A stretch of DNA of 64,000 nt from Gammaproteobacteria bacterium (GTDB lineage: Bacteria; Pseudomonadota; Gammaproteobacteria; Pseudomonadales; Pseudohongiellaceae), in the NCBI GenBank assembly GCA_029253585.1, contig JAQWZF010000008.1, positions 37,980 to 101,979 of the forward strand, in the 5' to 3' direction. The position numbers and the translations under genes were made by a program. Shown here one piece after another: positions 13,275 to 54,802 of this stretch. The notes under the pieces were generated by a model, which saw only the letters and a list, made by a program, of their open reading frames with translations, was not told the origin of the DNA and ran no database searches. The stretch's first letter is position 1; the number at the start of each line of letters is the position of its first letter.

Positions 13275-14255
13275 ATGCCCTATTACATGACGAAACTAAT
13301 TAGCTCAGTAGCGCAACGAGCAGATGAGTTACATCCGATGGCGGCGAAAGTCGCCAGGGCTGCCGCCAGGCAGAAGCCTCTGGGTGAATGCACCGCCGTG
13401 GAGGCCAGAGCCATGCGCGAGGAGCGCGGCAATCCCTTTGCGCCAGAAGCTGTTGCGATGGAAAGTATTACGGATCATTGGCTGCCTGGCGGCGCGGGGC
13501 AGTTGCGGGTGCGGCGCTATCAGCCCATGGCGACTCAGTCCGAGCTGCAGCCGGCTCTCCTTTATTTTCATGGGGGTGGTCATGTGCTGGGTACGCTAGA
13601 CGGCTATGACACCGTCGCCCAGCAGCTGGCGCTATTAGGAAATTGCGTGGTGTTTTCGGCTGAATATCGACTGGCGCCGGAGACGAAGTCTGCGGACATC
13701 TATCAAGATGGCCTCGATATCTACAATTGGCTACTCCACGGCGGCTCCGATTTAGGCATAGACCCGAATCGTATCGCGATAGGCGGTGACAGCGCCGGCG
13801 GCAACATCTCCATTGCGGTAATGCTGCAGTGCAAGCAGCAGAACATCGCGCAGCCTTGCTATCAGATTCTGATATATCCGGCCATAGACTATCGCATGGC
13901 GTATCCGTCCATCGACGAGTTTGCAGAAGGGTATTTTCTGACCAAGGCCGATAAGCAATGGTTTCGAAGTCAGTTTCTTGAGTCAGACGAGCGGGCGAGC
14001 AACCCTCTGGTGTCATCTATACTCGCAGATCTTGGCGGCCTGCCTCCAGCACTGGTAATTACGGCGGGCTTCGACCCCTTGCGTGATGAGGGCGAAGCCT
14101 TCGCAAAACGTTTAGCGGATCATGGCGTGCCGGTTGAACATGTTTGCTATATGGATATGATTCACGCCTTCGTGTCGTTTGCCGGCGGAATTCCTGCGGG
14201 AATGTCGGCCTTGGAGCGCATCGGCGCGAAGCTGCAGAAAGCCTTTAGCAACTAA
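13275..14255 (+). CDS. Alpha/beta hydrolase, HSL-type esterase/lipase
   Basis: Oxyanion HGGG motif (LLYFHGGGHVLG), nucleophile elbow GDSAGG and a C-terminal DPLRDEG / His region. Confidence 0.8.
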   Translation: MPYYMTKLISSVAQRADELHPMAAKVARAAARQKPLGECTAVEARAMREERGNPFAPEAVAMESITDHWLPGGAGQLRVRRYQPMATQSELQPALLYFHGGGHVLGTLDGYDTVAQQLALLGNCVVFSAEYRLAPETKSADIYQDGLDIYNWLLHGGSDLGIDPNRIAIGGDSAGGNISIAVMLQCKQQNIAQPCYQILIYPAIDYRMAYPSIDEFAEGYFLTKADKQWFRSQFLESDERASNPLVSSILADLGGLPPALVITAGFDPLRDEGEAFAKRLADHGVPVEHVCYMDMIHAFVSFAGGIPAGMSALERIGAKLQKAFSN

Positions 14256-14931: not shown

Positions 14932-15256
14932 GGCATCTCCTAAAAGGTATCTAGTGGAAGTCTGTGTGCAGACTGATATTCTGCAATTTTTTTTGTAAAT
15001 ACAGTATGTTAAAAAGAGGGCGAAGGATACCGTAATTGCGGCTTTAAATCCAACGAGACAATCGATTTTAATGGTAAATTTTGCAGAAAATTGCAGCAGA
15101 TCAACGCGATTCTAGGGGTCTGTGATCTTCCGAGCAATCGTTCGATTATTGCTTATCAAGGGCGGGGAATAATGGTAATCTTCGCCTTCTTCGAAATTCG
15201 AGTACACCCGCCGCGGGCTTGTTTTAGTCCGGATATCAAGGGTAGCCCAGGGCATT

Positions 15257-16483
15257 TTGGCCCGGAACAACAGGAGATTTACATTGAACGCTGATTTTAC
15301 CGCTGAAGAACTGCAATTCGAGCAGGAAGTTCGGGAGTTTTTGCAGAATGATTTTCCAGCTGAGTACCGAGAGAAGGTCGATGCTGGCATTCGCCTGAGC
15401 AAAGAGGAACTGGTGCACTGGCAGAAGATTCTCTATAAGAAGGGCTGGGCAGCCCCAAATTGGCCGGCCGAATACGGTGGTACCGGCTGGACGGCTACAA
15501 AGAAGCATATCTTCGCGACGGAAATGGGCCTTATCGGTGCGCCGGAACCCGTTCCATTTGGTATGAAGATGGTTGCTCCAGTAATCATGGCTTACGGCTC
15601 GGATGAGCAGAAGCAGCGTTTTCTTCCCGATATTCTGGAAAGCAATGTGTGGTGGTGTCAGGGTTATTCCGAGCCCAATGCAGGTTCCGATCTGGCGTCA
15701 TTAAAGACGTCTGCGGTGCGAGATGGTGATGAATATGTAGTCAATGGCAGCAAGACCTGGAACACCTACGGCCAGTATGCTGACTGGATTTTCTGCCTGG
15801 TACGCACCGACAACAGCGTGAAGAAGCAAGAAGGTATTAGTTTTCTGCTAATAGACATGAAGACCCCAGGTATAACTCTCAAGCCTATCGTGTTGTTAGA
15901 CGGTCATGCAGAAGTTAACGAAGTATTCTTCGATGACGTCAGGGTGCCGGCTAACAATCTTATCGGTGAAGAGAACAAGGGTTGGACCTACGCCAAAGTA
16001 TTGCTTACCCATGAACGTACAAATATCTCGGGCGTACCCCGCGGTAAGCGCCGACTTGCAGCGCTCAAGCGTCTCGCTAAGAATACCGACGATGGTTTCG
16101 GTAGCACGATGTTGGACAATGCGTCATTTAGGACGAAGTTGGCCGAGCTTGAGATTGAGCTACAGGCACTGGAATATTCTGAGCTGCGGACTCTTGCCGC
16201 CTTGAGCGTAGGTAATGCGCCTGGCCCTGAGTCGTCGATTTTAAAGATTGTCGGAACAGAACTCGCCCAGGAAATGGATGAAATGTTCGTCGACCTGGCT
16301 GGCTACCATTGTCTGCCTTTCGTACCTGAACAGTTTGAAGACGGTTTCCAGGGAGAGGCTATAGGCCCCGGTAACTCGGCGGCTGCGGCACTGACCTATT
16401 TTAATAACCGCAAGCTGTCGATATTCGGTGGCTCTAACGAAATTCAACGTAACATTATCAGCAAGGCTGTATTGGGTCTGTAA
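15257..16483 (+). CDS. Acyl-CoA dehydrogenase family protein (first of tandem pair 1)
   Basis: ACAD hallmarks: WPAEYGG, WCQGYSEPNAGSDLASL, VNGSKTWNT, GGSNEIQRNII. The likely true start is TTG at 15284, after CAGGAG. Confidence 0.85.
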   Translation: MARNNRRFTLNADFTAEELQFEQEVREFLQNDFPAEYREKVDAGIRLSKEELVHWQKILYKKGWAAPNWPAEYGGTGWTATKKHIFATEMGLIGAPEPVPFGMKMVAPVIMAYGSDEQKQRFLPDILESNVWWCQGYSEPNAGSDLASLKTSAVRDGDEYVVNGSKTWNTYGQYADWIFCLVRTDNSVKKQEGISFLLIDMKTPGITLKPIVLLDGHAEVNEVFFDDVRVPANNLIGEENKGWTYAKVLLTHERTNISGVPRGKRRLAALKRLAKNTDDGFGSTMLDNASFRTKLAELEIELQALEYSELRTLAALSVGNAPGPESSILKIVGTELAQEMDEMFVDLAGYHCLPFVPEQFEDGFQGEAIGPGNSAAAALTYFNNRKLSIFGGSNEIQRNIISKAVLGL

Positions 16484-16539
16484 TAGATTCGATGAGTGCC
16501 TTGGGCTGACAACGTAGATAGATTTAAAGAGGGATTATT

Positions 16540-17673
16540 GTGGATTTTTCGAACACAGAAGAACAGCAGATGCTGCAAGAGAGCGTGCAGAAGTTCGTTT
16601 ACAAAAGTTATGACTTCGATACGCGCAACAAAATCATTGCTACAGAAAAAGGCTTCAGTGATGAAAACTGGGAGCTTTTTGCGGAGCTGGGTTGGTTGAC
16701 CGTTCCTTTTCAGGAAGAAGATGGTGGCTTCGGTGGGTCTGCCGTCGACCTCGTCGTAATGATGGAAGAATTTGGCAAGGCAATGTTGGTTGAACCCTTC
16801 GTCGCGACGACTGTTCTAGCGGGCGGGCTGATCAGCGAACAGGGTAGTGCGCAGCAGAAGGCTGAGCTGTTGCCCAAGATTATGGAAGGTAAGCTGCAGC
16901 TGGCCTGTGCCTATGCAGAGCCGGGTAGTCGCTTCAATCTGGCGAACATCAAAACTTTGGCAGTAGCAGACGGCGACAACATTGTTCTTAATGGAAGCAA
17001 GACAGCGGTTCTGAACGGTTCGAATGCTGAAGTTCTGTTGGTCGTGGCGCGTGAATCAGGTGCGGTAACCGATACCACGGGCGTTTCGGTCTTCATGGTA
17101 GATGCGACAAGTGACGGGGTTTCGATTCAGGCCTTCGCTAACGTGGATGGCAAGAAGTCAGCCGAGATTACGCTTAAAGACGTCAGTGTGCCGGCGACGG
17201 CTAGGTTAGGCGAGGCTGAATCAGCCCTGCCTGCGCTGACTGCCGTTGTCGCTCGTGCAACGCTGGCGGTAAGTGCCGAGGCGGTAGGCGCGATGGAAGC
17301 AATGCTGCATAAGACTGTGGAATATAGTAAGACACGCAAGCAATTTGGTACGGCGATTGGTACGTTCCAGGCACTGCAGCACCGTATGGCGGATATGTTC
17401 ATCGAATGCCAGTTGGCACGTTCCATCGTAATCATGGCAGCCATGAAATTGGATGGCGGTGAAGACGCGATGGAGAAGAGCAAGGCAGTCTCTGCAGCCA
17501 AGAGTCGCATTGGCAAGGCGATAAACAATGTCGGTCAGGAAGCTATTCAGATTCATGGCGGCATTGCCATGACAGAAGAACTGGATGTCGGACATCTCTT
17601 CAAGCTGGTTACCGCTGCGGAAATCATGTTCGGGAATACCGATTATCACACCGAACGATTCGCGTCGCTTTAA
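16540..17673 (+). CDS. Acyl-CoA dehydrogenase family protein (second of tandem pair 1)
   Basis: ACAD fold motifs (EEDGGFGG, LNGSKT, IQIHGGIAMTEE). No Glu at either usual catalytic-base position in my by-eye alignment. Confidence 0.85.
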   Translation: MDFSNTEEQQMLQESVQKFVYKSYDFDTRNKIIATEKGFSDENWELFAELGWLTVPFQEEDGGFGGSAVDLVVMMEEFGKAMLVEPFVATTVLAGGLISEQGSAQQKAELLPKIMEGKLQLACAYAEPGSRFNLANIKTLAVADGDNIVLNGSKTAVLNGSNAEVLLVVARESGAVTDTTGVSVFMVDATSDGVSIQAFANVDGKKSAEITLKDVSVPATARLGEAESALPALTAVVARATLAVSAEAVGAMEAMLHKTVEYSKTRKQFGTAIGTFQALQHRMADMFIECQLARSIVIMAAMKLDGGEDAMEKSKAVSAAKSRIGKAINNVGQEAIQIHGGIAMTEELDVGHLFKLVTAAEIMFGNTDYHTERFASL

Positions 17674-17725
17674 GAGAGGTCTTCATGTCTCTCAGTGCTA
17701 TTCCCCGCGTGTGGCTATCTGAACC

Positions 17726-18436
17726 GTGAGCGAAATCATCTTGGTTCGCCACGGACAGGCATCATTCGGTGCAGATTCCTACGATAAATTGAGCGATAAG
17801 GGTGTCGAGCAAGTCAAAGTGCTTGCTCGACACTGGCAGGAAGTGGGCGAGCAATTCGACCATGTGTACAGCGGCACCTTGCTGAGACAGAAAGAGACAG
17901 CGAACGAGTTGCTCGCTCTGGTCAAGGGTGCCCCAAGCGCTTCTACTGAAAACCCCTCCTTCAATGAATACAATGGTGATCCCCTCATGCGTGTGTATCT
18001 TCGTGATCACGCAGCGCAGGAGGGATTCGACGTGCCGATTGGCTGGCCTATTAAAGATGAGCGCCTATTCCAAAGAATATTCGAAGCCGCCTGTGCGAAA
18101 TGGATACGCGGGGAGCTAACACCTAGTAGTGAGGAAGCAAATTTCGAGTATTGGGTAGACTTTCAAGATCGTGTTCATACTGCCGTCGATGAGATCATGG
18201 CCAGGCATAACGAGGGTGCGCGGGTATTAGTCTCCACCTCTGGCGGCGTCATAGCCATGGTGCTGCAAAGAGTATTACAATTCCCCGACGATGCCGTTAT
18301 CACCACAAATTGGATGGTGCGCAATAGTTCGGTGAGCCGTATTAAATACGGGCGAGGAAAGGTATCCTTGACTCAATTCAACAGCTTACCCCATCTTGAA
18401 AGAGCGGGTTTGCAGCAAATGATCACCTATAGATAG
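17726..18436 (+). CDS. Histidine phosphatase (phosphoglycerate-mutase) family protein
   Basis: RHG motif at the N-terminus (ILVRHGQASF). GTG start. Confidence 0.8.
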   Translation: MSEIILVRHGQASFGADSYDKLSDKGVEQVKVLARHWQEVGEQFDHVYSGTLLRQKETANELLALVKGAPSASTENPSFNEYNGDPLMRVYLRDHAAQEGFDVPIGWPIKDERLFQRIFEAACAKWIRGELTPSSEEANFEYWVDFQDRVHTAVDEIMARHNEGARVLVSTSGGVIAMVLQRVLQFPDDAVITTNWMVRNSSVSRIKYGRGKVSLTQFNSLPHLERAGLQQMITYR

Positions 18437-18452
18437 AGCAAAGGATTTCGTT

Positions 18453-19532
18453 TTGACGAACAATGAACTAGTCGATCAAGCCGGAAGTATGCGTGAGGGT
18501 GAGGAACTGGATCTGGATTGTCTCAGGCAATATCTTGAGCCAGTTCTCGGCAGTGCCGCTGCATCTCTGGAGGCCAAACAATTCCCCGGTGGCTTCTCCA
18601 ATCTTACCTATCTGCTTAGCAGCGGCGATGAGAAGTGGGTGCTACGCCGACCTCCATTTGGCAGTAAGGTTAAGTCTGCTCATGATATGTCGCGCGAGTA
18701 CAAGATTCTCTCGGCTCTGCAAAAAGTCTATTCCTACGGGCCGGTTCCCCTCCATTTCTGTGAAGATCATGACGTGCTGGGCTGTGATTTTTATTTGATG
18801 ACATACATCGAAGGCTTGGTGATTCGTCGCGAGTATCCGGCGAGCTTGAACATGAGCCCGAATCAGATTCGGCAGCAATTGTTTAATTTCTTCGATGTGT
18901 TGAGTGAGTTGCACTCCGTGGATCTGGTTGAGGCTGGCCTGGAAACATTCGGGCGCCCAGAAGGTTATGTTATGCGACAGGTTGAAGGGTGGTGCAAGCG
19001 CTGGGGCGATGCGGTGACCCCGGATACAGTAAATTGCGATGCAATAATGCAATGGTTGAATGACAATATGCCTGCCGAAAGCGGCAAGGCAAGCGTTATA
19101 CATAACGATTATAAGATGGATAACGTTATATTCTCCTTGGAGAATCCCCTTGAGGTGATCGGCGTCTTGGACTGGGAGATGGCAACCGTTGGCGATCCCC
19201 TGATGGACCTGGGTTGCACCCTTGGTTACTGGGTTCAAACTTCAGATCCAGATTTCTTCCGCGAATACAGAACAATGCCGAGCGATATCGAGGGTGCGCC
19301 TACTCGCGCCGAGATCGTTGCTCGCTTTCAAGAGAAGACAGGCCTACCCGTAGACAACTTCCCCTTCTACTTTTGTTTCGGTCTGTTTCGTTTAGCCGTA
19401 ATTGGTCAGCAAATTTACTACCGTTATTATCAGGGCCTGACGAAGGACAAACGTTTTGCGATGATGGTTAAGAAAACCCACATTCTGCAGCAGATGTGTG
19501 AACTGATTATTGCCGGCAAGGTAACTACATAA
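18453..19532 (+). CDS. Phosphotransferase-family kinase (APH / ACAD10-11 kinase-domain-like)
   Basis: Catalytic loop HNDYKMDNVIF and DWEMATVGDPLMDLG, both typical of the APH/choline-kinase fold. TTG start. Confidence 0.8.
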   Translation: MTNNELVDQAGSMREGEELDLDCLRQYLEPVLGSAAASLEAKQFPGGFSNLTYLLSSGDEKWVLRRPPFGSKVKSAHDMSREYKILSALQKVYSYGPVPLHFCEDHDVLGCDFYLMTYIEGLVIRREYPASLNMSPNQIRQQLFNFFDVLSELHSVDLVEAGLETFGRPEGYVMRQVEGWCKRWGDAVTPDTVNCDAIMQWLNDNMPAESGKASVIHNDYKMDNVIFSLENPLEVIGVLDWEMATVGDPLMDLGCTLGYWVQTSDPDFFREYRTMPSDIEGAPTRAEIVARFQEKTGLPVDNFPFYFCFGLFRLAVIGQQIYYRYYQGLTKDKRFAMMVKKTHILQQMCELIIAGKVTT

Positions 19533-19583
19533 GTTCGCTACTAAGAACTAGAATACATACTCCCAAGATTCAGGAATAAAGCG

Positions 19584-20369
19584 ATGGCCTTCGATATAAG
19601 TGAACTGTTCTCCGTGTCCGGTAAGGTGGCAATAGTTACGGGTGGCTCGAGGGGTATTGGTAAGATGATCGCCGAAGGCTATGTGGCGAACGGCGTAAAG
19701 ACCTATATCACCGCACGAAAAGCCGAGGCCTGTGAGGCGACGGCACAAGAGTTGTCGGCTCAGGGAGAGTGTATAGCTATCCCCGCGGACCTCTCTACCA
19801 AGGCTGGCAGGGATTCGTTCGTCAGTGAAATTAAGCAGCGCGAATCGGAGATCGATATCCTGGTAAATAATGCCGGCGCTGCCTGGGGAGCCCCGTTCGA
19901 GGAATATCCGGACGAAGGCTATGACAAGGTAATGGATATCAATGTGAAGGCCGTGTTTACCTTGACGCGAGACCTGATGCCTCTCCTTTGTAAGGATGCC
20001 AGCCCGGAACAGCCGAGTCGTGTAATCAATATTGGTTCTATCGATGGGTTGCGTGTCTCTAGCATGGATAATTTTGCCTATGGTGCCAGCAAGGCTGCCG
20101 TGCATTTCCTTACTAAGAACCTGGCAGTACGTTTGGCGCCTAAAGGTATTACGGTGAATGCGATCGCCCCTGGTGCTTTCGAGAGTCAGATGATGGATCA
20201 CACGTTGAGCCAATTTCGAGACAAGATAGAAACGGAGAATCCGCTGGGCAGAATAGGCAGGCCTACCGATATGGCAGGGCTTGCGCTCTATCTGGCCTGT
20301 AATGCCTCCAAATATATGACGGGGCAGGTGATCGCCATAGACGGCGGCCGCCACCTGGGTTCCCGCTAG
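19584..20369 (+). CDS. SDR-family oxidoreductase
   Basis: TGGSRGIG cofactor motif, NNAG, and catalytic YGASKAA. Confidence 0.85.
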   Translation: MAFDISELFSVSGKVAIVTGGSRGIGKMIAEGYVANGVKTYITARKAEACEATAQELSAQGECIAIPADLSTKAGRDSFVSEIKQRESEIDILVNNAGAAWGAPFEEYPDEGYDKVMDINVKAVFTLTRDLMPLLCKDASPEQPSRVINIGSIDGLRVSSMDNFAYGASKAAVHFLTKNLAVRLAPKGITVNAIAPGAFESQMMDHTLSQFRDKIETENPLGRIGRPTDMAGLALYLACNASKYMTGQVIAIDGGRHLGSR

Positions 20370-23200: not shown

Positions 23201-24349
23201 CTACTGTGCATCCCTAATCATATTGCGCGCGATAATGATCTGCTGAATCTGGCTGGTGCCCTCGTAGAGGCGAAACAGGCGGACATCGCGATAGAATCTT
23301 TCGACAGCATATTCTGACATATAACCTGCTCCACCATGAATCTGCACGGCGCGATCGGCAACGCGACCAACCATTTCTGTGGCGAAAAGTTTGCAGGCAG
23401 AAGACTCCGTGCTGACACTCTCGCCATTGTCTCGCTTTCGTGCCGTTTCCATCACCATGCACTCGGCGGCATAGGTCTCTGTCTGGGAATCGGCGAGCAT
23501 GGCCTGAATGAGTTGTTGGTCGGATAGGGGGACGCCAAACTGCTTGCGCTGCATCGCATAATCGAGGGCGTCCTTGATCAGCCGTTTGGCAACCCCGACA
23601 CAAAGGCCAGATATATGTAGTCGACCTCGATCCAGCACCTTCATCGCGGTGATGAAGCCAGTGCCTTCTTCGCCAATAATGTTTTCGGCGGGAACCGGAC
23701 AGTCTTCGAAAATGACGTCGCAGGTCATGGAGCCGGACTGGCCCATTTTTTTATCGATCGGACCTAGTGTAATGCCGGGTGAGCCTTTCTCGACTATAAA
23801 AGAGGAGATACCCCGGGCACCTTTGATGTCGGGATTCGTCCTCGCCATTACGTTGAAGGTGTCGGCAACAGCTGCATTGGTAATGTAGCGCTTGGTGCCA
23901 TTGAGTATGTAGTGATCGCCTTCGCGCCTTGCGGTGGTCCTCAGTGAGGCGGCGTCTGAGCCGGACTCCGGTTCAGTAAGACAGAAACAGCTCACCCATT
24001 CTCCGCTGGCATACTTGGGCAGGTATTTTTGTTTCTGCTCCTCGGTGCCGGCGAATACGATGGCTGCCGAGCCGATGCCGTTGTTAGTGCCTATAATCGA
24101 GCGAAAAGCAGGGGAGGTATGACCCAAGGCAATGGTGACCAGGATCTCTTCTTCCATGGTTAAGCCTAGGCCGCCGTATTCTTCTGGAATGGTAAGGCCG
24201 AATAAGCCCAGCTCCTTCATCTCCTGAAGCAGCCCGTCTGGCATCTTCGCTTCCTCTGCCAGTTGGTTTTCGGCGGGAATCAATCTCTCGCTTACGAAGC
24301 GTTCGATTAAATCCACTAGTTGTTTGAGTGTTTCCGGGTCTCGTATCAT
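23201..24349 (-). CDS. Acyl-CoA dehydrogenase (canonical short/medium-chain type)
   Basis: CLTEPESGSDA, LNGTKRYITN, and a canonical C-terminal YEGTSQIQ carrying the catalytic Glu. Confidence 0.9.
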   Translation of the reverse strand: MIRDPETLKQLVDLIERFVSERLIPAENQLAEEAKMPDGLLQEMKELGLFGLTIPEEYGGLGLTMEEEILVTIALGHTSPAFRSIIGTNNGIGSAAIVFAGTEEQKQKYLPKYASGEWVSCFCLTEPESGSDAASLRTTARREGDHYILNGTKRYITNAAVADTFNVMARTNPDIKGARGISSFIVEKGSPGITLGPIDKKMGQSGSMTCDVIFEDCPVPAENIIGEEGTGFITAMKVLDRGRLHISGLCVGVAKRLIKDALDYAMQRKQFGVPLSDQQLIQAMLADSQTETYAAECMVMETARKRDNGESVSTESSACKLFATEMVGRVADRAVQIHGGAGYMSEYAVERFYRDVRLFRLYEGTSQIQQIIIARNMIRDAQ

Positions 24350-24794
24350 TGAATATTTGCCTGAATTCCTGATTAATGGTGGAGCAAAATCCTGAGCCAG
24401 TCATGAAATGATGTGCCCACATCGAAGCACATGCCAAGGCTCAGCTGCTATCCGCTTTAAGCTAGCATATTTGTCTATTCGAAGCGACTGCATGCACCGT
24501 AATTACTGGACCTTGGCCCAATACCCTAGGTGGATTTGCTATGCTAGAATGATCGACCTCGCGCTAGTGGTGCCGGTATTTTCAGGCATAAACGCCGAGG
24601 CTTGGCAGTGGTTTCAGGGGGATTCCAGGGCCAATATCGTGAAGGCTGGTATTACCGGTACTTGTTACCAGTAAGAATGCTCGGCGATAAGCAAGAAGGG
24701 TAGGGCTAGAAAGCATAGAAAGATAGAAAGCAACAAGCCAGCAAGAGCCTAAGCTATTCCATCTCTACTAAATCTCCCCAAGCTAATAACCAGA

Positions 24795-26027
24795 GTGAGT
24801 GTGAACATGCCCGATAATTCTCCGCGCGATGCATTTATTTATGACGGTGGTCGTACCGCCTTTGGCCGACATGCAGGAGCGCTTTCTCCGATACGCCCCG
24901 ATGACCTGTTGGCTCACGCAATCAAATCTGTCGTCGAGCGAAATGCCTTCGAAGCCGCTGCCTATGAAGATGTCATCATAGGCAATACCAACGGGGCCGG
25001 TGAGGACTGTCGCAATGTTGCGCGCTTTGCCTTGCTCAGGGCCGGTATGCCCACCTCGGTGGCAGGGTTAACAGTGAATCGCCTATGCGGCTCCGGGCTG
25101 GCGGCGACCCTGGATGCCGCCCGAGGAGTCAAGGCAGGCGAGGGTGAGTTGTTTCTGGCAGGTGGCGTTGAGTCTATGAGTAGAGCCCCGATCGTCATGT
25201 CGAAGGCGCATACTGCGTTCGATCGTGGGCAGCTGATAGCGGACAGTACATTAGGTGCCAGGTTTACCAATCCTGCTTACGCGGCTGCCTACGGAAACGA
25301 TACGATGCCGGAGACTGCAGACAACATTGCGAGTGACCTGGGTATCACCAGAGAGGAGAGCGATACTTTCGCGGCGGCTTCTCAGTCCAGATACGAGGCG
25401 GCAAGAGCCGATGGCTTTTTCAAAGACGAGATTGTGCCCATAGACGTGCCCCAGGGCCGCAAGAAGCCCGATCTCACTGTCGATGCCGATGAGCATCCGC
25501 GGCCTTCCTCTACGCTAGAGGTTCTGGGTGGTTTGCGCGCTCTGGCTGCAGAGGGTGTAGTCACAGCGGGCAATGCCAGTGGCATTAACGATGGCGCGGC
25601 GGCGCTTATCGTGGGTAGTGCAGCCATAGGCGAAAAATATTCGGTTAAGCCCCGGGTACGCATCATCGCTGGTGCCGTTGCCGGTGTTGAACCACGGGTC
25701 ATGGGATTGGGTCCTGTATTCGCTATCCGCAAGGCCTTGCAGCGAACAAATCTGGAGCTTGCCGATATGGATATCATCGAGATCAATGAGGCATTCGCAT
25801 CGCAGGTGCTTGGCTGTCTCAAGATGTTGGAAGTGGACTTCAGCGACTCACGCGTAAATCCTAACGGTGGGGCAATAGCGTTGGGCCATCCCCTGGGTGC
25901 GTCTGGCGCAAGAATTGCCATTACCGCCATGCGTCAGCTGGAAAGAACCGGCGGACGCTATGCTGCTATCAGTCTGTGTATTGGTATCGGCCAGGGTGTC
26001 GCAGCGATTCTCGAGCGAGTCGAATAA
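24795..26027 (+). CDS. Acetyl-CoA C-acyltransferase (thiolase; PcaF/PaaJ-like)
   Basis: Active-site Cys region (VNRLCGSGL), NEAFA, and the C-terminal GGAIALGHPLGASG...CIGIGQG. Confidence 0.9.
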   Translation: MSVNMPDNSPRDAFIYDGGRTAFGRHAGALSPIRPDDLLAHAIKSVVERNAFEAAAYEDVIIGNTNGAGEDCRNVARFALLRAGMPTSVAGLTVNRLCGSGLAATLDAARGVKAGEGELFLAGGVESMSRAPIVMSKAHTAFDRGQLIADSTLGARFTNPAYAAAYGNDTMPETADNIASDLGITREESDTFAAASQSRYEAARADGFFKDEIVPIDVPQGRKKPDLTVDADEHPRPSSTLEVLGGLRALAAEGVVTAGNASGINDGAAALIVGSAAIGEKYSVKPRVRIIAGAVAGVEPRVMGLGPVFAIRKALQRTNLELADMDIIEINEAFASQVLGCLKMLEVDFSDSRVNPNGGAIALGHPLGASGARIAITAMRQLERTGGRYAAISLCIGIGQGVAAILERVE

Positions 26028-26090
26028 CGTCTACTTTGAAAAAGAGTGAGCAGTACTCCTTACACGTAAATCAGTAAACAGGAATTAAAC

Positions 26091-28196
26091 ATGGCGAATG
26101 TCGTAAGTTATGAGTTAGTAGGAAATATTGGTGTTATCAGTGTCAACAGCCCGCCAGTCAATGCGCTTTCACAGGCCGTACGCGAAGGCATATTGAATGC
26201 AGTCAACGCGGCGCAGGAAGACGGCTCCGAGGCTATCGTATTGCGCTGCGAAGGTCGTACCTTTATCGCAGGTGCAGATATTACCGAATTTGGAAAGCCG
26301 CCTATGGAACCAGGCTTGCCCGAGGTGCTTGGGGCAATCGAAAATTCCAAGAAGCCGGTGATAGCGGCTATACATGGCACCGCACTGGGCGGTGGATTTG
26401 AAGTGGCTCTGGCCTGTCACTATCGCTGTGCGATCGCGTCAGCGAAGGTGGGTCTCCCAGAAGTTAAGTTAGGCCTGTTGCCGGGCGCGGGTGGAACACA
26501 ACGCGTGCCACGTGTGGCTGGTGTGCAAGTGGCACTGGACATGATCACGAGTGGTAACCCTGTTGCGGCAGCTAAAGCAAACAGCATGGGATTGTTGGAT
26601 GAGGTCGTCGACGGCGATGATCTGCAAGCAGCCGCGATAAAATATGCCACTGATCTGCTTGAGTCTGGCGCGCCATTGAAGCGTATTCGTGACATCACTA
26701 TCGACCCGGCTACTATCGAGCCTGGTTTCTTCGATGCGGCCAGAAAGAAGTTGGCCCAGCGTGCGCGTGGACAGATCGCTCCTGACAAGATTGTGTCCTG
26801 CATAGAGGCGGCGGTGAACCTGCCCATGGAACAGGGATTGGAACGCGAGCGTGAATTATTTCGCGAACTGGTCACCTCGCCAGAATCGGCGGCGATGCGT
26901 CACATCTTCTTTGCGGAACGCCAGGCGGCGAAGATTAAAGACTTGCCTAAAGATACGCCACTGCGCGACATCAAGAAGGTAGCTATCATCGGTGGCGGAA
27001 CAATGGGCGGTGGTATCGCCATGTGTTTCGCGAATGTTGGCATTCCTGTAGTCATGCTTGAGATTAACGATGAAGCGCTTGAGCGTGGCATGAATATAAT
27101 CCGCAAGAACTACACGATTACTGTACAGAAAGGAAAGCTCCCTGCGGACAAGATGGAGCAGTTGATCAGCACAATCTCGGGAACCACAGACTATGCAGAT
27201 CTTGGCGATGTCGATCTGGTTATCGAGGCTGTCTTCGAAAATTTAGATCTAAAGAAAGAAATATTCGCGAAGTTGGATGCCGTCTGCAAGCCAGGTGCAA
27301 TTTTGGCAACGAATACCTCCTATCAGGATGTCGATGCCATCGCCGAGGCGACAAGTCGACCACAAGATGTACTGGGCCTGCATTTCTTTAGCCCGGCGAA
27401 TGTGATGAAGTTGCTGGAGATCGTTCGCGGCGCTAAGACTGCAGACGATGCATTAGCGACTTCCATGCAGATAGGCAAGAAGATCGGCAAGGTCTGCGCG
27501 CTTTCTAGGGTGTGTTACGGCTTTATCGGTAATCGTATGCTGGGTGGCTATGGCCGCGAGGCGCAGATGCTGTTAATGGACGGTTGCACTCCCGCACAGG
27601 TGGATTCAGCCCTGGAGAAATTTGGTATGGCGATGGGTCCTCTCGCGATGGGCGATCTTGCCGGTTTGGATGTTGGCTATAAGGCGCGTCAGGCTCGCAC
27701 TGACCTGCCAGACGATCCCAAGCTGTATCGCATGGGCACTCTGCTGGTCGAGATGGGCAGACATGGACAGAAAACCGGAGCCGGATTCTATAAGTACGAC
27801 CCGCAGACGCGACGTCGCATGTCCGACCCTGAGATCGAATCTATGATCAAGGAAGAAGCGGCGAAGTTAGGAATCGAGCAGCGCGATATATCAGACGAAG
27901 AGATTCTGCAGCGTTGTTTCTATCCGTTAATTAATGAGGGCGCGTTGATTCTCGAAGAGGGGATTGCGCAGCGCCCTAGTGATATCGATGTAGTGTACGT
28001 GTTTGGCTACGCATTCCCGGCAGCCAAGGGCGGGCCTATGCACTATGCCGATCATGTTGGCCTGAAGAATGTCTATGACAAGATCTGCGAATTCAGAGAT
28101 ATGTATGGCGAGCAATACTGGAAGCCGGCGCCGCTACTGGAAAAATTGGCGAAAGAAGGAAAGACCTTCGCCGAATGGGGGCGCGAGAACGGATAG
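26091..28196 (+). CDS. Multifunctional enoyl-CoA hydratase / 3-hydroxyacyl-CoA dehydrogenase (FadB/FadJ-like)
   Basis: N-terminal crotonase domain (FIAGADI..., AIHGTALGGGFE). Central NAD Rossmann (VAIIGGGTMGGGIA). 701 aa. Confidence 0.9.
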   Translation: MANVVSYELVGNIGVISVNSPPVNALSQAVREGILNAVNAAQEDGSEAIVLRCEGRTFIAGADITEFGKPPMEPGLPEVLGAIENSKKPVIAAIHGTALGGGFEVALACHYRCAIASAKVGLPEVKLGLLPGAGGTQRVPRVAGVQVALDMITSGNPVAAAKANSMGLLDEVVDGDDLQAAAIKYATDLLESGAPLKRIRDITIDPATIEPGFFDAARKKLAQRARGQIAPDKIVSCIEAAVNLPMEQGLERERELFRELVTSPESAAMRHIFFAERQAAKIKDLPKDTPLRDIKKVAIIGGGTMGGGIAMCFANVGIPVVMLEINDEALERGMNIIRKNYTITVQKGKLPADKMEQLISTISGTTDYADLGDVDLVIEAVFENLDLKKEIFAKLDAVCKPGAILATNTSYQDVDAIAEATSRPQDVLGLHFFSPANVMKLLEIVRGAKTADDALATSMQIGKKIGKVCALSRVCYGFIGNRMLGGYGREAQMLLMDGCTPAQVDSALEKFGMAMGPLAMGDLAGLDVGYKARQARTDLPDDPKLYRMGTLLVEMGRHGQKTGAGFYKYDPQTRRRMSDPEIESMIKEEAAKLGIEQRDISDEEILQRCFYPLINEGALILEEGIAQRPSDIDVVYVFGYAFPAAKGGPMHYADHVGLKNVYDKICEFRDMYGEQYWKPAPLLEKLAKEGKTFAEWGRENG

Positions 28197-28263
28197 AGCG
28201 CGTTCAGATAAGTCTATCTGATTACATCCTTTGCTATTGAGTATCTACTGAAGAGAAGAAAAT

Positions 28264-29304
28264 ATGATTGCATATCAAACCACAACGCCAGGTGCGGCTC
28301 TGGTAGAAGTTGAATCACAAACGCCGGTCCCTCAGGGTACGGGAGTGTTGGTCAAGACAGTTGCCTGCGGTGTCTGTCATTCGGATATACATATGCACGA
28401 CGGTGTCTTCAATCTTGGTAATGGCAAGCAACTCGAGGTAGGTCGCGAAGGCATGGTATTAGGCCATGAAATCTTTGGCGAAGTAGTTGCCGTTGGGCCC
28501 GATGCGGAGGGTGTTCAGATTGGCGATCGACGCGTCGTCTACCCCTGGATTGGTTGCGGTGAATGTGCGGCATGTAAGCGAGGCGAGGAACAATTATGTA
28601 CCCCCGGCCGCGCTCTGGGAATTGTGGTTCATGGCGGCTTCGCCGACCACGTTCTCATCCCTCACAGTCGTTATTTGTTCGACAAGGGAGACGTGGCAGA
28701 TTCCCTTGCAGCTACCTATGCCTGCTCCGGACTCACTGCCTATGCCGCACTTAAGAAGGTAGGCGATCTTCACGCAGACGATGCCGTGGTTATTATAGGC
28801 GCCGGCGGTGTCGGCATGATGGCTATTCAGATCGCGATTTCAGCCATGGGTATAGATCCAATAGTTGTCGACATCGACGATGCCAAGCTGCAGGCGGCTC
28901 AAGAGATTGGGGTTAGCCGAACTTTCAATTCATCTGATCCACAGACGGCGAAAGCCTTGCGTAATGCTACCGGTGGTGCCTACGCGGTACTGGATTTTGT
29001 TGGAGCCGAAGCTTCTGTTAATTATGGCCTAGGCTGTCTGCGTAAAGGCGGCATGCTAGTGATTGTGGGTCTGTACGGTGGTGCCTTGAATTTACCAATT
29101 CCCTTTATTCCGATGAATGCACGCATTATTCAGGGTAGCTATGTGGGCACACCTCAAGACATGGCCGAGCTTATGGAGCTAGTGCGCGCAGGCAAGATTG
29201 CGCCTATCGACATTCACGAACGGCCGCTGTCGGAAGCCGGCGCGGCACTTGCAGATTTGAAGGCGGGGAAGGTTCAAGGGCGTCAGGTATTAGTCACAGG
29301 CTAG
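28264..29304 (+). CDS. Zinc-dependent alcohol dehydrogenase family protein
   Basis: GVCHSDIH and GHEIFGEV zinc-ligand motifs, structural-zinc Cys cluster (CGECAACKRGEEQLC) and GAGGVG. Confidence 0.85.
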   Translation: MIAYQTTTPGAALVEVESQTPVPQGTGVLVKTVACGVCHSDIHMHDGVFNLGNGKQLEVGREGMVLGHEIFGEVVAVGPDAEGVQIGDRRVVYPWIGCGECAACKRGEEQLCTPGRALGIVVHGGFADHVLIPHSRYLFDKGDVADSLAATYACSGLTAYAALKKVGDLHADDAVVIIGAGGVGMMAIQIAISAMGIDPIVVDIDDAKLQAAQEIGVSRTFNSSDPQTAKALRNATGGAYAVLDFVGAEASVNYGLGCLRKGGMLVIVGLYGGALNLPIPFIPMNARIIQGSYVGTPQDMAELMELVRAGKIAPIDIHERPLSEAGAALADLKAGKVQGRQVLVTG

Positions 29305-29369
29305 GCTTGTACTCAGCTAATACTGAAATTTGAATACTAGATAGTCATTTAAGACAGAGGAGGGTTGCC

Positions 29370-30599
29370 TTGCAGTCCCTACAAGATTTTCGAGAAGAAA
29401 CTCGCAGCTGGCTGGAGCAGAATTGCCCCGAGTCGATGCGCACAGCGATGGTACAGGAAGAAGTCGTCTGGGGTGGCCGCAATGCGCAGTTCACCAATCC
29501 CGACAGCAAGATTTGGTTAGAGCGTCTGGCGCTGAAGGGCTGGACCTGTCCGACCTGGCCCGCCGAATACGGTGGTGGCGGCTTGGACAAAGATCAGGCA
29601 ATTATACTGAACGAGGAATTGGTGCGTATCAATGCGCGCCCGGGGCTGACCAGTTTTGGCATTAGTATGCTGGGTCCCGTGCTGCTTGAATACGGTAATC
29701 ATGAACAGAAGCTGGAGCATATTCCGAAGATAGTGCGTGGAGAGATTCGTTGGTGCCAGGGATATTCTGAGCCGGGCTCCGGTTCGGACCTTGCCAGCCT
29801 CGCGACCAAGGCAGAGTTACAGGGCGATACCTATCTGATTAATGGATCCAAGGTGTGGACTTCCTATGCCGACAAGGCAGATTGGATTTTTTGTCTGGTG
29901 CGCACCGACTTCGAGGTGCCCAAGCATGCGGGTATTAGCTTCATATTGTTCGATATGGCTAGCGAGGGCATCTCCACTAAACCGATCCAGTTGATTAGCG
30001 GCTCCTCGCCCTTCTGTGAGACATTCTTCGATGATGTCAAAGTGCCAGCAAGCAATCTCGTTGGGCGTCTTAACGAAGGCTGGACCATTGCCAAGCGCCT
30101 GCTACAACATGAGCGCACCATGATTTCTGGCTTCGGGCTAAGCTCGGGCCAGTCAGACAATGGCGGCACTACATCGACCATCTCCAGCCTGGAAGGTACG
30201 GCGATGAGCTACCGCGGCGATAGTGAGAAATTATCCGACCCGGTGCTGCGTGACCAGATTGCACAGTTCAAGATCGACAGTGACGCGTTTGCCTATACTT
30301 CTAGACGCTCGATCGAAGAGTCCAAGCAGGGGCAGGGGCCGAATGCGACTTCCTCCATGCTCAAGAATTACGGCTGCGAGCTGAACAAGCGTCGTTATGA
30401 ATTAATGTTGCAGGCAATCGGTAGTCAGGGACTGGGCTGGGAAGGAAAAGGTTTCAATGACGAGGAATTACAGTTAACTCGCGAGTGGTTGCGTTCCAAA
30501 GCAAACTCTATCGAAGGTGGTACATCGGAAGTTCAATTGAATGTAATCGCCAAGAGAGTATTGGGGCTGCCCGATATTCTGAGTATGGCTCAGAAATAA
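29370..30599 (+). CDS. Acyl-CoA dehydrogenase family protein (first of tandem pair 2; paralogue of 15257..16483)
   Basis: Shares WPAEYGG, WCQGYSEPGSGSDLASL, INGSKVWTSYADKADWIFCLVRTD and LLQHERT with the pair-1 protein. TTG start. Confidence 0.85.
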   Translation: MQSLQDFREETRSWLEQNCPESMRTAMVQEEVVWGGRNAQFTNPDSKIWLERLALKGWTCPTWPAEYGGGGLDKDQAIILNEELVRINARPGLTSFGISMLGPVLLEYGNHEQKLEHIPKIVRGEIRWCQGYSEPGSGSDLASLATKAELQGDTYLINGSKVWTSYADKADWIFCLVRTDFEVPKHAGISFILFDMASEGISTKPIQLISGSSPFCETFFDDVKVPASNLVGRLNEGWTIAKRLLQHERTMISGFGLSSGQSDNGGTTSTISSLEGTAMSYRGDSEKLSDPVLRDQIAQFKIDSDAFAYTSRRSIEESKQGQGPNATSSMLKNYGCELNKRRYELMLQAIGSQGLGWEGKGFNDEELQLTREWLRSKANSIEGGTSEVQLNVIAKRVLGLPDILSMAQK

Positions 30600-30641
30600 G
30601 TAAGACAACATAGAACGGTGTTTGTAAGGAAGAATTTGAAA

Positions 30642-31790
30642 ATGGCTTTAGTGTTAAGTGAAGACCAGCAATTACTGAAAGACTCGGCAAAGAGTTTCTG
30701 TGAACAGATTGCGCCCGTTTCCCTGTTGCGTAAACTGCGCGACAGTAAAGATGAGCAAGGCTATGACCAAGCTGTCTGGGCGCAGATGATCGAGCTGGGC
30801 TGGGGCGGTATGGCTGTGCCCGAATCCTATGGCGGTTTCGAATTTGGCTATGGTGGCCTGGGTGTTGTGTTGGAGGAGTCTGGCAGAACGCTGCTTAGCT
30901 CTCCGCTAATCTCTACCGTATTGATCGGCGCTACAGCCATCTTCGAACTTGGCAATGAGACCCAGAAACAGCAACTGCTGCCGCAAATTGTCGCCGGTGA
31001 ACTGCTCACAGCCTTGGCTCTCGATGAACACACGACTCATCGTCCAAGCAGGGTAGCCACCACAGCCACCAAGGTCGAAGGTGGTTACAGCTTAAGCGGT
31101 AGCAAGACCTTCGTACTCGATGGGCATATTGCAAACAAGCTTATCACCGTAGCGCGAACATCGGGTGAGACCGATAGCGAGCAAGGACTGTCTGTCTTTC
31201 TCGTGGACGCCGCTGCCGAGGGCGTTAGCATTAAGCGCACAATCATGGTCGACAGTCGCAATTCTTCCAATGTTCAGTTTAGCGATGTGCGGGTTCCCTC
31301 CGAGGCGCTGCTAGGCGACTTCGATGGTGCTTTTGAGAGCCTAAGCAAGGTGCTGGATATCGCGCGAATAGGTGTGGCAGCGGAGATGTTAGGCAGCATG
31401 CAAGCCGTCTTCGAAAGCATCCTGGTCTATCTAAAGCAGCGCGAGCAGTTCGGTGTTCTGATTGGTTCCTTTCAGGGGTTGCAGCACCGTGCCGCCGAGA
31501 TGTATAGCGAAATCGAGCTGTGTAAGTCAGCCGTGCGCGCTGCGTTATCGGCTCTGGACGATCCCGAAAAATCGTCGCGAGAGATCGCAGTGATTGCCAG
31601 CATGGCCAAGGCAAAACTCTCCGAAGTGTTCTTCCTGGTGAGCAATGAAGGCATACAGATGCACGGCGGTATTGGTATGACCGACGAGTTCGATGTAGGC
31701 TTTTACATCAAGCGTGCGCGGGTAGCTCAGCAATTCCTTGGCGATGCAGCATTCCATCGTGATCGCTATGCAAGCCTGAACGGCTTTTAG
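30642..31790 (+). CDS. Acyl-CoA dehydrogenase family protein (second of tandem pair 2; paralogue of 16540..17673)
   Basis: ACAD fold (ESYGGFEFG, LSGSKTF, IQMHGGIGMTDE). The ATG at 30642 after AAGGAAG is preferred to the ORF-track start at 30618. Confidence 0.85.
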   Translation: MALVLSEDQQLLKDSAKSFCEQIAPVSLLRKLRDSKDEQGYDQAVWAQMIELGWGGMAVPESYGGFEFGYGGLGVVLEESGRTLLSSPLISTVLIGATAIFELGNETQKQQLLPQIVAGELLTALALDEHTTHRPSRVATTATKVEGGYSLSGSKTFVLDGHIANKLITVARTSGETDSEQGLSVFLVDAAAEGVSIKRTIMVDSRNSSNVQFSDVRVPSEALLGDFDGAFESLSKVLDIARIGVAAEMLGSMQAVFESILVYLKQREQFGVLIGSFQGLQHRAAEMYSEIELCKSAVRAALSALDDPEKSSREIAVIASMAKAKLSEVFFLVSNEGIQMHGGIGMTDEFDVGFYIKRARVAQQFLGDAAFHRDRYASLNGF

Positions 31791-33451: not shown

Positions 33452-34156
33452 ATGAAAAAAATTGAAATTAATAGTGCAGTAAAGACAATATTCTTTCTAG
33501 GGTTGTCAGTGTTCGCCTCGCTCGCGGCCGCGCAGAATCTGGATCCAAACCGATTCGAGGATTCTATACTCGCGTTCGAGGCGCAAGATGCAAAGTCGCA
33601 GCCAGCAGAAGGAGCTATCTTGCTGACCGGCAGCTCCAGCATCGCGCGTTGGAACGATCAGGCTGAAGCAGCTCTTGCGCCTCTTTCGGTAATACCCCGA
33701 GGCTTCGGTGGCAGCGTGATGGGCGATGTATTGCACTATCTGGATCGAGTCGCTTTTAGCTACAAGCCGCGCGCAATTTTGATTTATGAGGGCGACAACG
33801 ATACCTGGTACAAGCTGCCCAATGACAAGATCGTCAGTCAGTTTGAGGAAATTGTGGCCAGAGTTCATCAGGCTCTGCCCGAGACTCGTGTGTATGCGCT
33901 CTCGGTCAAGCCCAGCCTGGCTCGTGTCGATGTCTGGCCTGCAGCGCAACAGGTAAGCGCGCGCCTGCAAGCTATCGCCGAGGCCGACCCGCTGGTGCAC
34001 TATATCGATGTGGCTACGCCCTTTCTAAAATCCGACGGCACGGTAATGACCGATATCTTCATCGAGGATGGCCTGCATCTGAATGACAAGGGTAACGTAA
34101 TATGGGGTCGGGCAATCAAGGCTGGCCTCATGCAGATTGAAGCACAATTCGAATAG
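33452..34156 (+). CDS. Exported SGNH/GDSL-type hydrolase
   Basis: Signal peptide, block I (ILLTGSSSIARW), block III (YEGDND) and block V (DGLHLN). Confidence 0.75.
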   Translation: MKKIEINSAVKTIFFLGLSVFASLAAAQNLDPNRFEDSILAFEAQDAKSQPAEGAILLTGSSSIARWNDQAEAALAPLSVIPRGFGGSVMGDVLHYLDRVAFSYKPRAILIYEGDNDTWYKLPNDKIVSQFEEIVARVHQALPETRVYALSVKPSLARVDVWPAAQQVSARLQAIAEADPLVHYIDVATPFLKSDGTVMTDIFIEDGLHLNDKGNVIWGRAIKAGLMQIEAQFE

Positions 34157-53263: not shown

Positions 53264-54724
53264 TTACAACTTCGTTGATACGAGCTGGCTGCCGCGTTCT
53301 CCAGAGGCTACCCAGCCTCCGATGATGGCGGAAAACATTCCGGCTGTGCCACCGGTGGTAACGATGTGTAGTCCATCGTCGCGAAACTTGTTGAGTACCT
53401 TGTCTTTAAATTTTTCCGGCATGCCCTCCGCGATGTCATTTGCGCCGCGTACGATCTCAGTACCAGGTGTCATTAATTTTTCGTAGAGCGCCTTGCGTAA
53501 ATCTTCTTTATTCCAGCCGCCCTCGCGGAAGACGCGGCGGTGTTCCGGGCAGACGACTAGAATTGCGTCTGCCAGCCCAAATACTTTTGTGTGCGCTACG
53601 CTGCGCAGACTCATCGCCATGCTCTTTGCCAGAGACTGTGGCGTGCGTGATTGCTGATCGAGTATCGGTTGCAGGCCATCACCAGCGAAGAGACTGATCA
53701 CAGAATCCGCTCTATCGAAACCTCGGTCCATCGACAGGCTTGCCCAGTTTTCATCGCTTTCATCTTCGGCGAAACAGTAGGTATATTTCCCCGGGTTGCC
53801 CATATTCGCACGGTCGATGCCGCCAGGAACACCACCACCGACATTGCGAATAATCAATTGCAGTGCCCGGCCAATTGTCGCATTCGCTCTATTGCCTTGC
53901 CCTAATGCATTGATGCCAGAGTTCATGCCGATCTGTTTGACGACCGGCCCGCTTACCACCATGACAGGAGAGGAGAAATACGTTGTGCACAGCAGGCCAT
54001 GCATGCAGAAACGATCTTGCAATGCGGCCTCGACGCTGGCGATAACCACCGGAAAGTATTCCGGCTTGCAGCCAGCCATGACGGCATTGATTGCTATCTT
54101 CTCGATAGAGCAGGACACGTTGTCCGGTGGAACTTTACCGATAATTTCAGCGGCGTCTCGGTCGCTGCCGTTTAGCATTCGCATAACCCGCAGGGGTGTT
54201 GGAGGAACCACCGGCAGGCCATCGCTCCAGCCTCTGTCATAGCAGGCCTCCATGATATCTTCGGCCTCCGCCAATTCAACCGCGCGAGCCTGCAGGATCT
54301 GCTTGCCGAAGCGCAGGGCGAGTACTTCATTCATGCCGGGATCTTGTGTCTTGGATCCGCAGCCAGGTTTAAAGTCGATGAGCTCGGCACCGAGTGCTTC
54401 TATGCCGGTGAAGCTCTGCCACTGCTTCTTCTCCCAGCCGTAGATGCGGGACTCTTCGGATTGGGCATCGTTACCATCGCTTAGTCGTATAAGAGTAGGT
54501 ACTACCTCTATCTCCCGTTGGTAGGAATACTCCAGGCTAGAGTCATCGATGACATCATCTATGTCAGCCGGAAAAGACGGGTCATCCTGCACATACACTT
54601 TCAGCGAAAGAGTCTCGTTATTTGCTAATGAGTGGATCACGGGTTCGATGAGCGCGCAGGTCGGGCAGTCTTTCTTAACGACCAGCGCATAATGAGTTGT
54701 TTGGTTTGCGATTGCTTGGTTCAA
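53264..54724 (-). CDS. Thioredoxin-like (CPTC) N-terminal module fused to a large uncharacterised domain
   Basis: 486 aa. N-terminus is YALVVKKDCPTCALIEPVIHSL (Trx-fold CxxC). The remaining ~350 aa (GWSDGLPVVPPTP..., AINAVMAGCKPEYFP..., GNRANATIGRALQLIIRNVGGG) match no family I recognise. TTG start after AAGGAA. Confidence 0.7.
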   Translation of the reverse strand: MNQAIANQTTHYALVVKKDCPTCALIEPVIHSLANNETLSLKVYVQDDPSFPADIDDVIDDSSLEYSYQREIEVVPTLIRLSDGNDAQSEESRIYGWEKKQWQSFTGIEALGAELIDFKPGCGSKTQDPGMNEVLALRFGKQILQARAVELAEAEDIMEACYDRGWSDGLPVVPPTPLRVMRMLNGSDRDAAEIIGKVPPDNVSCSIEKIAINAVMAGCKPEYFPVVIASVEAALQDRFCMHGLLCTTYFSSPVMVVSGPVVKQIGMNSGINALGQGNRANATIGRALQLIIRNVGGGVPGGIDRANMGNPGKYTYCFAEDESDENWASLSMDRGFDRADSVISLFAGDGLQPILDQQSRTPQSLAKSMAMSLRSVAHTKVFGLADAILVVCPEHRRVFREGGWNKEDLRKALYEKLMTPGTEIVRGANDIAEGMPEKFKDKVLNKFRDDGLHIVTTGGTAGMFSAIIGGWVASGERGSQLVSTKL

Positions 54725-54802
54725 AAACGAGTTCCTTGAGAACGGGCCGACTTTTCGTGCGGCTAGGCGCTATGCCTGATTCATGAGTAAATTGTCGATA
54801 GC

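Follow-up and report, generated by a model that had tools for sequence, protein, structure and literature searches.

A stretch of 64,000 nucleotides from a marine, Pseudohongiella-like gammaproteobacterium of the family Pseudohongiellaceae (GenBank assembly GCA_029253585.1, contig JAQWZF010000008.1, positions 37,980 to 101,979; here termed the window) carries five intact, co-directional open reading frames (ORFs) on the + strand at positions 15257-20369. The initial annotation, made from the letters of the DNA alone, had described these as tightly spaced genes for two acyl-CoA dehydrogenase (ACAD)-family proteins, a histidine phosphatase, an APH-type kinase and a short-chain dehydrogenase/reductase (SDR), and had likened the set to the route in which 4-hydroxyacyl-CoAs are phosphorylated and the phosphate is then eliminated. 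The gene families and their layout were borne out by the ORFs, by Pfam and by the gaps between the genes (56, 52, 16 and 51 nt, in gene order), and the motifs quoted for the kinase (HNDYKMDN, DWE) and for the phosphatase (RHG) are present. The first two genes encode ACADL (15284..16483, + strand), the large (alpha) subunit of an alpha2beta2-type acyl-CoA dehydrogenase, and ACADS (16540..17673, + strand), the small (beta) subunit of the same dehydrogenase, which is without the catalytic base; both match Pfam Acyl-CoA_dh_N/M/1. They are followed by genes for an atypical histidine-phosphatase-superfamily protein (17726..18436, + strand; Pfam His_Phos_1, 7e-21), an ACAD10/ACAD11/LvaA-type kinase predicted to act on 4-hydroxyacyl-CoA (18453..19532, + strand; Pfam APH, 8e-50) and an RhlG-like SDR (19584..20369, + strand; Pfam adh_short_C2, 6e-55). 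The five ORFs stand as originally delimited, apart from the start of the first ACAD, whose frame is open from 15257 but which more likely begins at TTG 15284, since an AGGAG lies 8 nt upstream of this codon and orthologues start at the same NADFT residues.

A promoter/terminator scan revealed no terminator-like site in any of the intergenic gaps of the operon, and the promoter-like sites that it returned were no more frequent than in shuffled sequence. The order ACAD-ACAD-phosphatase-kinase is found again in 25 related loci, 22 of them complete and three cut at a contig end, with kinase identities of 63 to 93%, which indicates conserved synteny and not chance. The closest of these loci come from Pseudohongiella, from Pseudohongiellaceae genomes and from gammaproteobacterial metagenome-assembled genomes (MAGs), and their flanks are conserved as well, with pal upstream and a split MFS/spermidine-synthase-like gene downstream. 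An imperfect palindrome, CGAGCAATCGTTCGA, lies at 15131..15145 (+ strand), ~140 nt upstream of the first gene, and is a candidate operator over a likely promoter. It is kept in the upstream regions of 10 related loci, in which the phosphatase gene showed no conserved promoter-like block ahead of it, and Pfam scans of the surrounding ORFs found no regulator gene near it. The palindrome occurs only once in the 3.35-Mb assembly, and an operator common to this operon and to the eliminase cluster on contig C5 described below was rejected on this ground.

Two records related to the locus bear unexpected titles: one named 'SAR86 cluster bacterium' (L001) has 93% kinase identity and the same synteny, and one named 'Rhodoferax sp.' (L021) has 69% kinase identity. 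Both show a Pseudohongiellaceae-type cluster and flanks, and are likely to be mislabelled or mis-binned MAG contigs. Within the operon itself, the phosphatase gene has a GTG start and, unlike the other four genes, no recognisable Shine-Dalgarno sequence (17700-17726); it may be translated weakly or through coupling.

The kinase and its phosphatase-like neighbour

The closest solved structure to the kinase is that of a Caldalkalibacillus thermarum homologue of the ACAD10 kinase (PDB 9o56; 4e-83, 43% identity over 328 residues), followed by 3dxp (5e-46) and by the kinase domain of mouse ACAD11 (1e-45, 32% identity), after which PDB matches fall to 1e-8 or weaker; NCBIfam models for thiamine and homoserine kinases give 19-36 bits. 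The HxDxKxxN catalytic loop and the DWE metal-binding motif of the APH fold are both present, and the corresponding segments (IHNDYKMDN, LDWEMAT) line up with the catalytic positions of 9o56 and mouse ACAD11 (D220, N225), so that the proposed alignment with the ACAD11 kinase domain held. In addition, GYVMRQVEGW aligns with GYCKRQVSTW of ACAD11, and its Arg matches R176, a CoA contact in the mouse protein (PMC12440821); this Arg is kept throughout the kinase family and therefore does not discriminate between subfamilies. In a maximum-likelihood tree the kinase falls together with the C. thermarum homologue, 3dxp and mouse ACAD11, and a long branch with 100/98 support parts this ACAD10-type group from the other three APH-fold proteins of the genome. 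The PDB matches and this branch confirm the suggestion that the kinase is of the LvaA/ACAD10-11 kind, and the clustering with antibiotic or homoserine kinases that had been named as evidence to the contrary did not occur in the tree. The kinase belongs to the ACAD10-like subfamily (43% identity to the C. thermarum protein), and not demonstrably to the LvaA subfamily. No second ACAD10-type kinase was found in the genome (the assembly is 94% complete), and this candidate was rejected on the dissimilarity of the other three APH-fold proteins to the kinase (best E 2.1), which look SrkA-, AmgK- and fructosamine-kinase-like.

Distant relatives of the kinase (43-54% identity) were located at 55 loci in many phyla, and in 39 of them an ACAD with an HCMR motif is directly adjacent and co-directional. 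These neighbouring ACADs carry RLGPGRIHHCMR together with a C-terminal (Y/A)DG(A/P)DEVH; the Arg, the HCMR motif and the catalytic Asp have been reported as specific to ACAD10/11 and LvaC (PMC12440821), and ACADs of this type are referred to here as eliminases. A histidine phosphatase is also present at 15 of the 55 loci and an SDR of one particular type (SDR2-like) at 17. At loci L101-L106, which belong to other Pseudomonadales families and have a 3dxp-type kinase, the order is phosphatase, HCMR ACAD, kinase, SDR. In a sample of the order comprising 121 genomes, 22 of them with the kinase, an HCMR-type ACAD occurs in 20/22 kinase-bearing genomes vs 61/121 overall, and the phosphatase in 17/22 vs 36/121, nearly always beside the kinase, whereas an ACADL orthologue is only weakly enriched (11/22 vs 44/121). 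The single complete member of the family that is without the kinase is also without the phosphatase, the eliminase and an ACADL orthologue. A general tie between an alpha2beta2 pair and the kinase was considered and was not seen at the 55 distant loci. In the maximum-likelihood tree the pair-linked kinases form one clade (100/100), nested among the HCMR-linked kinases; the arrangement of ACAD pair, phosphatase and kinase arose once, in Pseudohongiellaceae and close relatives.

The phosphatase family accompanies these kinases and eliminases across phyla, and in most genomes of the order that have the kinase, a homologue adjoins either that kinase or the HCMR ACAD. R8-H9-G10, R54 and E81 are invariant in 13 members of the family, and the second active-site His (HGG) is replaced by an invariant Ser, which in the window protein (17726-18436) lies in T171-S172-G173-G174. 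A PDB search with the single sequence gave no match, but a family profile did, and in it the TSGG or SSGG of the family aligns with the HGG of 9mmh and of CobC (3hjg). The His-to-Ser change holds beside ACAD10-type and 3dxp-type kinases alike. The protein has the fold but, from its residues, may not be a standard hydrolase. In the levulinate-induced cluster of P. citronellolis a histidine phosphatase lies between lvaA and lvaC, its role having been left open (PMC6692424), and the HAD domain of ACAD10, which has an unrelated fold, is degenerate and has been reported to restrain the kinase (PMC11342911). The degenerate domain and the His-to-Ser protein could be regarded as loosely parallel. The initial annotation had treated the phosphatase as foreign to lva operons, which is correct for P. 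putida and incorrect for the P. citronellolis LA18T cluster (PMC6692424).

The ACAD pair, the SDR and an eliminase in trans

ACADL and ACADS are adjacent paralogues with 26% identity to each other. They score 469 bits against NCBIfam pimC_large (cut-off 624) and 382 bits against pimD_small (cut-off 653), respectively, in the TIGR03204/TIGR03203 pair of models, and as both scores lie under the equivalog cut-offs the proteins are related to PimC/PimD but are not orthologues of them. The best PDB match of ACADL is FadE26/ChsE4 (4x28_A, 4e-61), and ACADS matches 4x28_D (FadE27) and Tcur3481. The Glu of LLTHERT in ACADL aligns with NHER of FadE26, which is the helix-G base position used by LCAD and IVD (PMC11153573), and ACADL has Gly at the MCAD-type YEG base position; in the alignment, ACADS has neither Glu nor Asp at either catalytic-base position. 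In alpha2beta2 ACADs both the base and the pocket belong to the alpha subunit, and the beta subunit contributes to FAD binding (PMC11153573). On sequence grounds, the window pair is a FadE26/27-like, PimC/D-like alpha2beta2 dehydrogenase. It resembles M. tuberculosis FadE26-FadE27 (ChsE4-ChsE5, 4x28) and R. palustris PimC-PimD (TIGR03204/TIGR03203) in being encoded by adjacent paralogous genes, FadE26/27 in having the catalytic Glu on helix G of the large subunit alone, and the Pro-loop of ChsE4 in the prolines of its aligned GAPxPxPF segment. Unlike FadE26/27 and PimC/D, the pair has no steroid or pimelate gene context. Its orthologues in other families (64-68% identity) are encoded with no kinase nearby. 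To our knowledge, a co-operonic kinase of the 4-hydroxyacyl-CoA type has not been described for the FadE26/27 or PimC/D enzymes.

The initial annotation had proposed the two ACADs as possible counterparts of LvaC and of the ACAD domain of ACAD11, and checking them for the signature of those enzymes spoke against this: neither has the R...HCMR helix or the catalytic Asp. In the alignment ACADL has KVLLTHERTNISG and ACADS VVARATLAVSAE where eliminases have RLGPGRIHHCMR, and at the C-terminal MCAD-type position the two have IFGGSNE and IMFGNTD, respectively, vs YDGADE or ADGPDE in eliminases. The pair as an LvaC equivalent was ruled out by these motifs together with its best matches.

The SDR is set apart from the rest of the operon by its distribution. 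Its best PDB match is RhlG (2b4q, 1.5e-74; the next is 2e-40), and it is 48% identical to SDR1 and 35% to SDR2 of the eliminase cluster on C5. An SDR of this RhlG-like type lies near the kinase in 16 of the 25 pair loci; in the deeper branches (L015-L024) the position is filled by other genes, which on reading appear to encode a hotdog thioesterase or, on the other strand, a MATE transporter. In other phyla the module is accompanied by an SDR2-like enzyme. The window SDR was accordingly rejected as the usual SDR of the module, and equating it with LvaD, as had been proposed, is not supported, since it is RhlG-like and confined to a sub-clade, and the module-type SDR adjoins the eliminase on C5.

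That eliminase is encoded in trans, outside the window, on contig C5 of the same assembly (54144-55358). The protein matches ACAD11 (8v3u) at 7e-124 and 2wbi at 2e-119 in the PDB, shares identical QGRLGPGRIHHCMR and RLADGPDEVH motifs with ACAD11, and combines the Arg and HCMR motif, the catalytic Asp and the similarity to the ACAD11 domain. Upstream of it lie genes for a CurA-like NADPH enone reductase and two SDRs (cluster C5:51408-55358). A C5-type eliminase was found in five of the five complete Pseudohongiella genomes checked, at 86-90% identity and far from the kinase, and its neighbours (SDR, enone reductase) are conserved in Pseudohongiella. At L039 and L042 (Trueperaceae) the gene directly after the kinase likewise encodes an enone reductase of this type. 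The linkage with an enone reductase hints at substrates derived from 4-hydroxy- or 4-oxo-alkenals.

The predicted route and its alternatives

The genome is predicted, from the genes that it carries, to have a 4-hydroxyacyl-CoA route. The initial suggestion of such a pathway in place of plain beta-oxidation is upheld to this extent and fails for the ACAD pair, which is of the dehydrogenase type. We consider it fairly likely that the kinase and its phosphatase-like partner serve this route with the eliminase in trans, and that the ACAD pair is a conventional dehydrogenase co-expressed with them. The operon would then join two things of different origin, the ACAD pair and the displaced kinase-phosphatase half of an ACAD10/11-LvaA/LvaC module. 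The kinase is predicted to carry out ATP-dependent phosphorylation of the 4-hydroxyl of 4-hydroxyacyl-CoAs, which could arise by beta-oxidation shortening of hydroxy or oxo fatty acids, of lactones and of 4-hydroxyalkenal-derived acids, and the HCMR ACAD of C5 would convert the 4-phosphoacyl-CoA to a 2-enoyl-CoA. The phosphatase-like protein would be a conserved third partner, which may clear off-pathway phospho-intermediates, restrain the kinase or transfer phosphate. The ACAD pair would be FAD-dependent and catalyse ordinary alpha,beta-dehydrogenation, its substrates probably being bulky or substituted acyl-CoAs, with ACADL providing the helix-G catalytic Glu and the substrate pocket and with ACADS being non-catalytic, and the RhlG-like SDR would be a late addition with a keto- or hydroxy-acyl substrate. 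The simplest history would be that one rearrangement split an ancestral SDR-SDR-eliminase-phosphatase-kinase module, of the type seen at L077, with the SDRs and the eliminase staying in place and the phosphatase and the kinase moving together behind an existing ACAD pair.

Several points weigh against this assignment of roles. Co-transcription of the operon is predicted from spacing and synteny, and a second kinase or eliminase could be missing from the assembly, given its 94% completeness. The order of pair and kinase is kept across a family-level clade, and a related pair adjoins the module at L101/L102, so that the pair could be a true partner in the pathway. The substrate itself is also in dispute: ACAD10/11 kinase domains and the B. 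pseudomallei orthologue of LvaA phosphorylate 4-hydroxyacyl-CoA (PMC12440821, PMC11342911), and a preprint reports that the C. thermarum homologue and ACAD10 phosphorylate 1-O-alkylglycerols (PMC13596139), which makes the physiological substrate of the kinase subfamily contested.

If the ACAD pair were the partner of the kinase, it would oxidise 4-phosphoacyl-CoA to the 2-enoyl form with transfer of electrons to the electron-transferring flavoprotein (ETF); phosphate would leave to give a 2,4-dienoyl-CoA, and a reductase, possibly the RhlG-like SDR, would return the product to beta-oxidation. Such a scheme, redox-open where the LvaC/ACAD11 reaction that it would replace is redox-neutral, seems improbable. 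It would account for the order of ACAD pair, phosphatase and kinase in all 25 loci of the clade, for the related pair that stands divergent beside a canonical module in another Pseudomonadales family and for the SDR added downstream in a sub-clade, and a transient 2,4-dienoyl intermediate has been proposed for the known enzyme (PMC11342911). Nevertheless, the basic residues believed to bind the phosphate (R...HCMR) are all missing from the pair, no kinase lies near its closest orthologues in other families (64-68% identity), the association of ACADL with the kinase in the order is weak, and an intact HCMR eliminase is present in every pair-bearing genome checked. A broader version, in which the Pseudohongiellaceae pair has been co-opted as a partner dedicated to the kinase and the phosphatase-like protein, either for the redox-open 4-phosphoacyl-CoA route or as a specialised hydroxy- or phospho-acyl dehydrogenase, and in which the phosphatase-like protein, instead of being a hydrolase, is a subunit for phosphoryl transfer or regulation, is likewise given little probability.

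The linkage may also be without meaning, one rearrangement followed by vertical descent having left a kinase that still serves the C5 eliminase next to a pair unrelated to hydroxy acids. This account is unlikely, although it deserves some weight: the arrangement has a single origin, orthologues of the pair are independent of the kinase elsewhere, and the flanks (pal; the MFS/spermidine-synthase-like gene) are ordinary conserved chromosome. On the other hand, the arrangement has been kept, with short gaps, down to 63% kinase identity, and the one conserved palindrome upstream, with no conserved promoter-like block seen before the phosphatase, implies shared regulation, which is usually selected. 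Very improbable, in our assessment, is that the kinase and the phosphatase act on lipids, for example on an alkylglycerol or another lipid alcohol and its phosphate, with the ACADs as mere neighbours. The closest solved structure, 9o56 (43% identity), is that of the C. thermarum protein, for which, as for other prokaryotic homologues, alkylglycerol kinase activity has been reported, and the phosphatase domain of ACAD10 itself has been reported to dephosphorylate an ether-lipid phosphate (preprint PMC13596139); the window also contains several genes for lipases or esterases. Against this, the kinase is coupled across phyla to the HCMR ACAD, for which 4-phosphoacyl-CoA is the sole known substrate, the CoA-contacting Arg of ACAD11 is conserved in the kinase, and the acetyl-CoA stimulation described in the same preprint (PMC13596139) points to a CoA-binding site. 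Like the window kinase, the C. thermarum homologue (9o56) is bacterial, stands alone as a protein and has the HxDxK and DWE motifs; that protein has been reported as an acetyl-CoA-stimulated 1-O-alkylglycerol kinase (PMC13596139), whereas the window kinase is predicted to act on 4-hydroxyacyl-CoA.

The split assignment, with the kinase and its phosphatase-like partner serving an eliminase in trans, can be set beside the systems in which the pathway has been described. The kinase-then-eliminate route for 4-hydroxy acids has been elucidated only recently, for P. putida in 2017 and for ACAD10/11 during 2024-25. As compared with mammalian ACAD10/ACAD11 (8v3u, 8v3v, 2wbi; PMC12440821, PMC11342911), the window kinase is homologous to their N-terminal kinase domain, and the C5 ACAD, which has both the HCMR helix and the catalytic Asp, is homologous to their ACAD domain (7e-124). 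In contrast to the single polypeptide of ACAD10/11, the kinase and the eliminase are here separate genes on different contigs, and an alpha2beta2 ACAD pair that has no counterpart in the mammalian proteins shares the operon of the kinase. ACAD10 also has a phosphatase-fold domain, but it is of the HAD and not the histidine-phosphatase fold and is unrelated. The expectation that the same set of activities would be found here as separate genes does not survive, since the ACADs are not eliminases, the eliminase is on C5 and the SDR is RhlG-like.

The locus is like the Pseudomonas lva clusters (P. putida lvaABCDE: Rand et al. 2017, as cited in PMC12440821) in its logic, which is that of a kinase, an ACAD-like eliminase and an SDR acting on 4-hydroxyacyl-CoA, and the lvaA-histidine phosphatase-lvaC-lvaD order of P. 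citronellolis LA18T (PMC6692424) places a phosphatase beside the kinase, as here. Unlike in the lva operon, the LvaC-type gene is in trans and not in the operon; the window SDR is RhlG-like, unlike the usual SDR of the module, which is like SDR2 of C5; and, unlike lvaABCDE under LvaR, no LvaE-type/AMP-binding CoA ligase and no LvaR-type sigma-54 regulator was found among the Pfam-scanned ORFs at 1-34 kb of the window, LvaB not having been searched for. The pathway is known, and what is new is the split architecture, with an ACAD pair in the usual place of the eliminase. Neighbourhood annotation can mislead, in that an ACAD beside such a kinase need not be an eliminase, and the HCMR motif and the catalytic Asp cleanly tell eliminases from other ACADs. 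Moreover, the module can be split and yet persist, which offers a natural test of the stoichiometric coupling of kinase and eliminase, and on splitting the phosphatase-like protein has followed the kinase and not the eliminase, which is further evidence for its being a conserved third component.

Other genes of the window

A dense run of beta-oxidation genes extends downstream over 23201-31790. As identified with Pfam and NCBIfam, it comprises an ACAD (23201-24349, - strand), a thiolase (24795-26027), a FadB-type enzyme (26091-28196), a zinc-dependent alcohol dehydrogenase (28264-29304) and a second alpha2beta2 ACAD pair (29370-30599 / 30618-31790), the subunits of which are 40% and 37% identical to those of the first. 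Genes for lipases or esterases occupy 1409-2479, 13275-14255 and 33452-34156. One further neighbourhood of a pair and the kinase module occurs in two genomes of another Pseudomonadales family (L101 10544-12974, L102 3435-5839), where a pimCD-like pair, 56% and 44% identical to the second pair of the window, stands divergent beside a phosphatase-eliminase-kinase-SDR module and is followed by an SDR and a thiolase.

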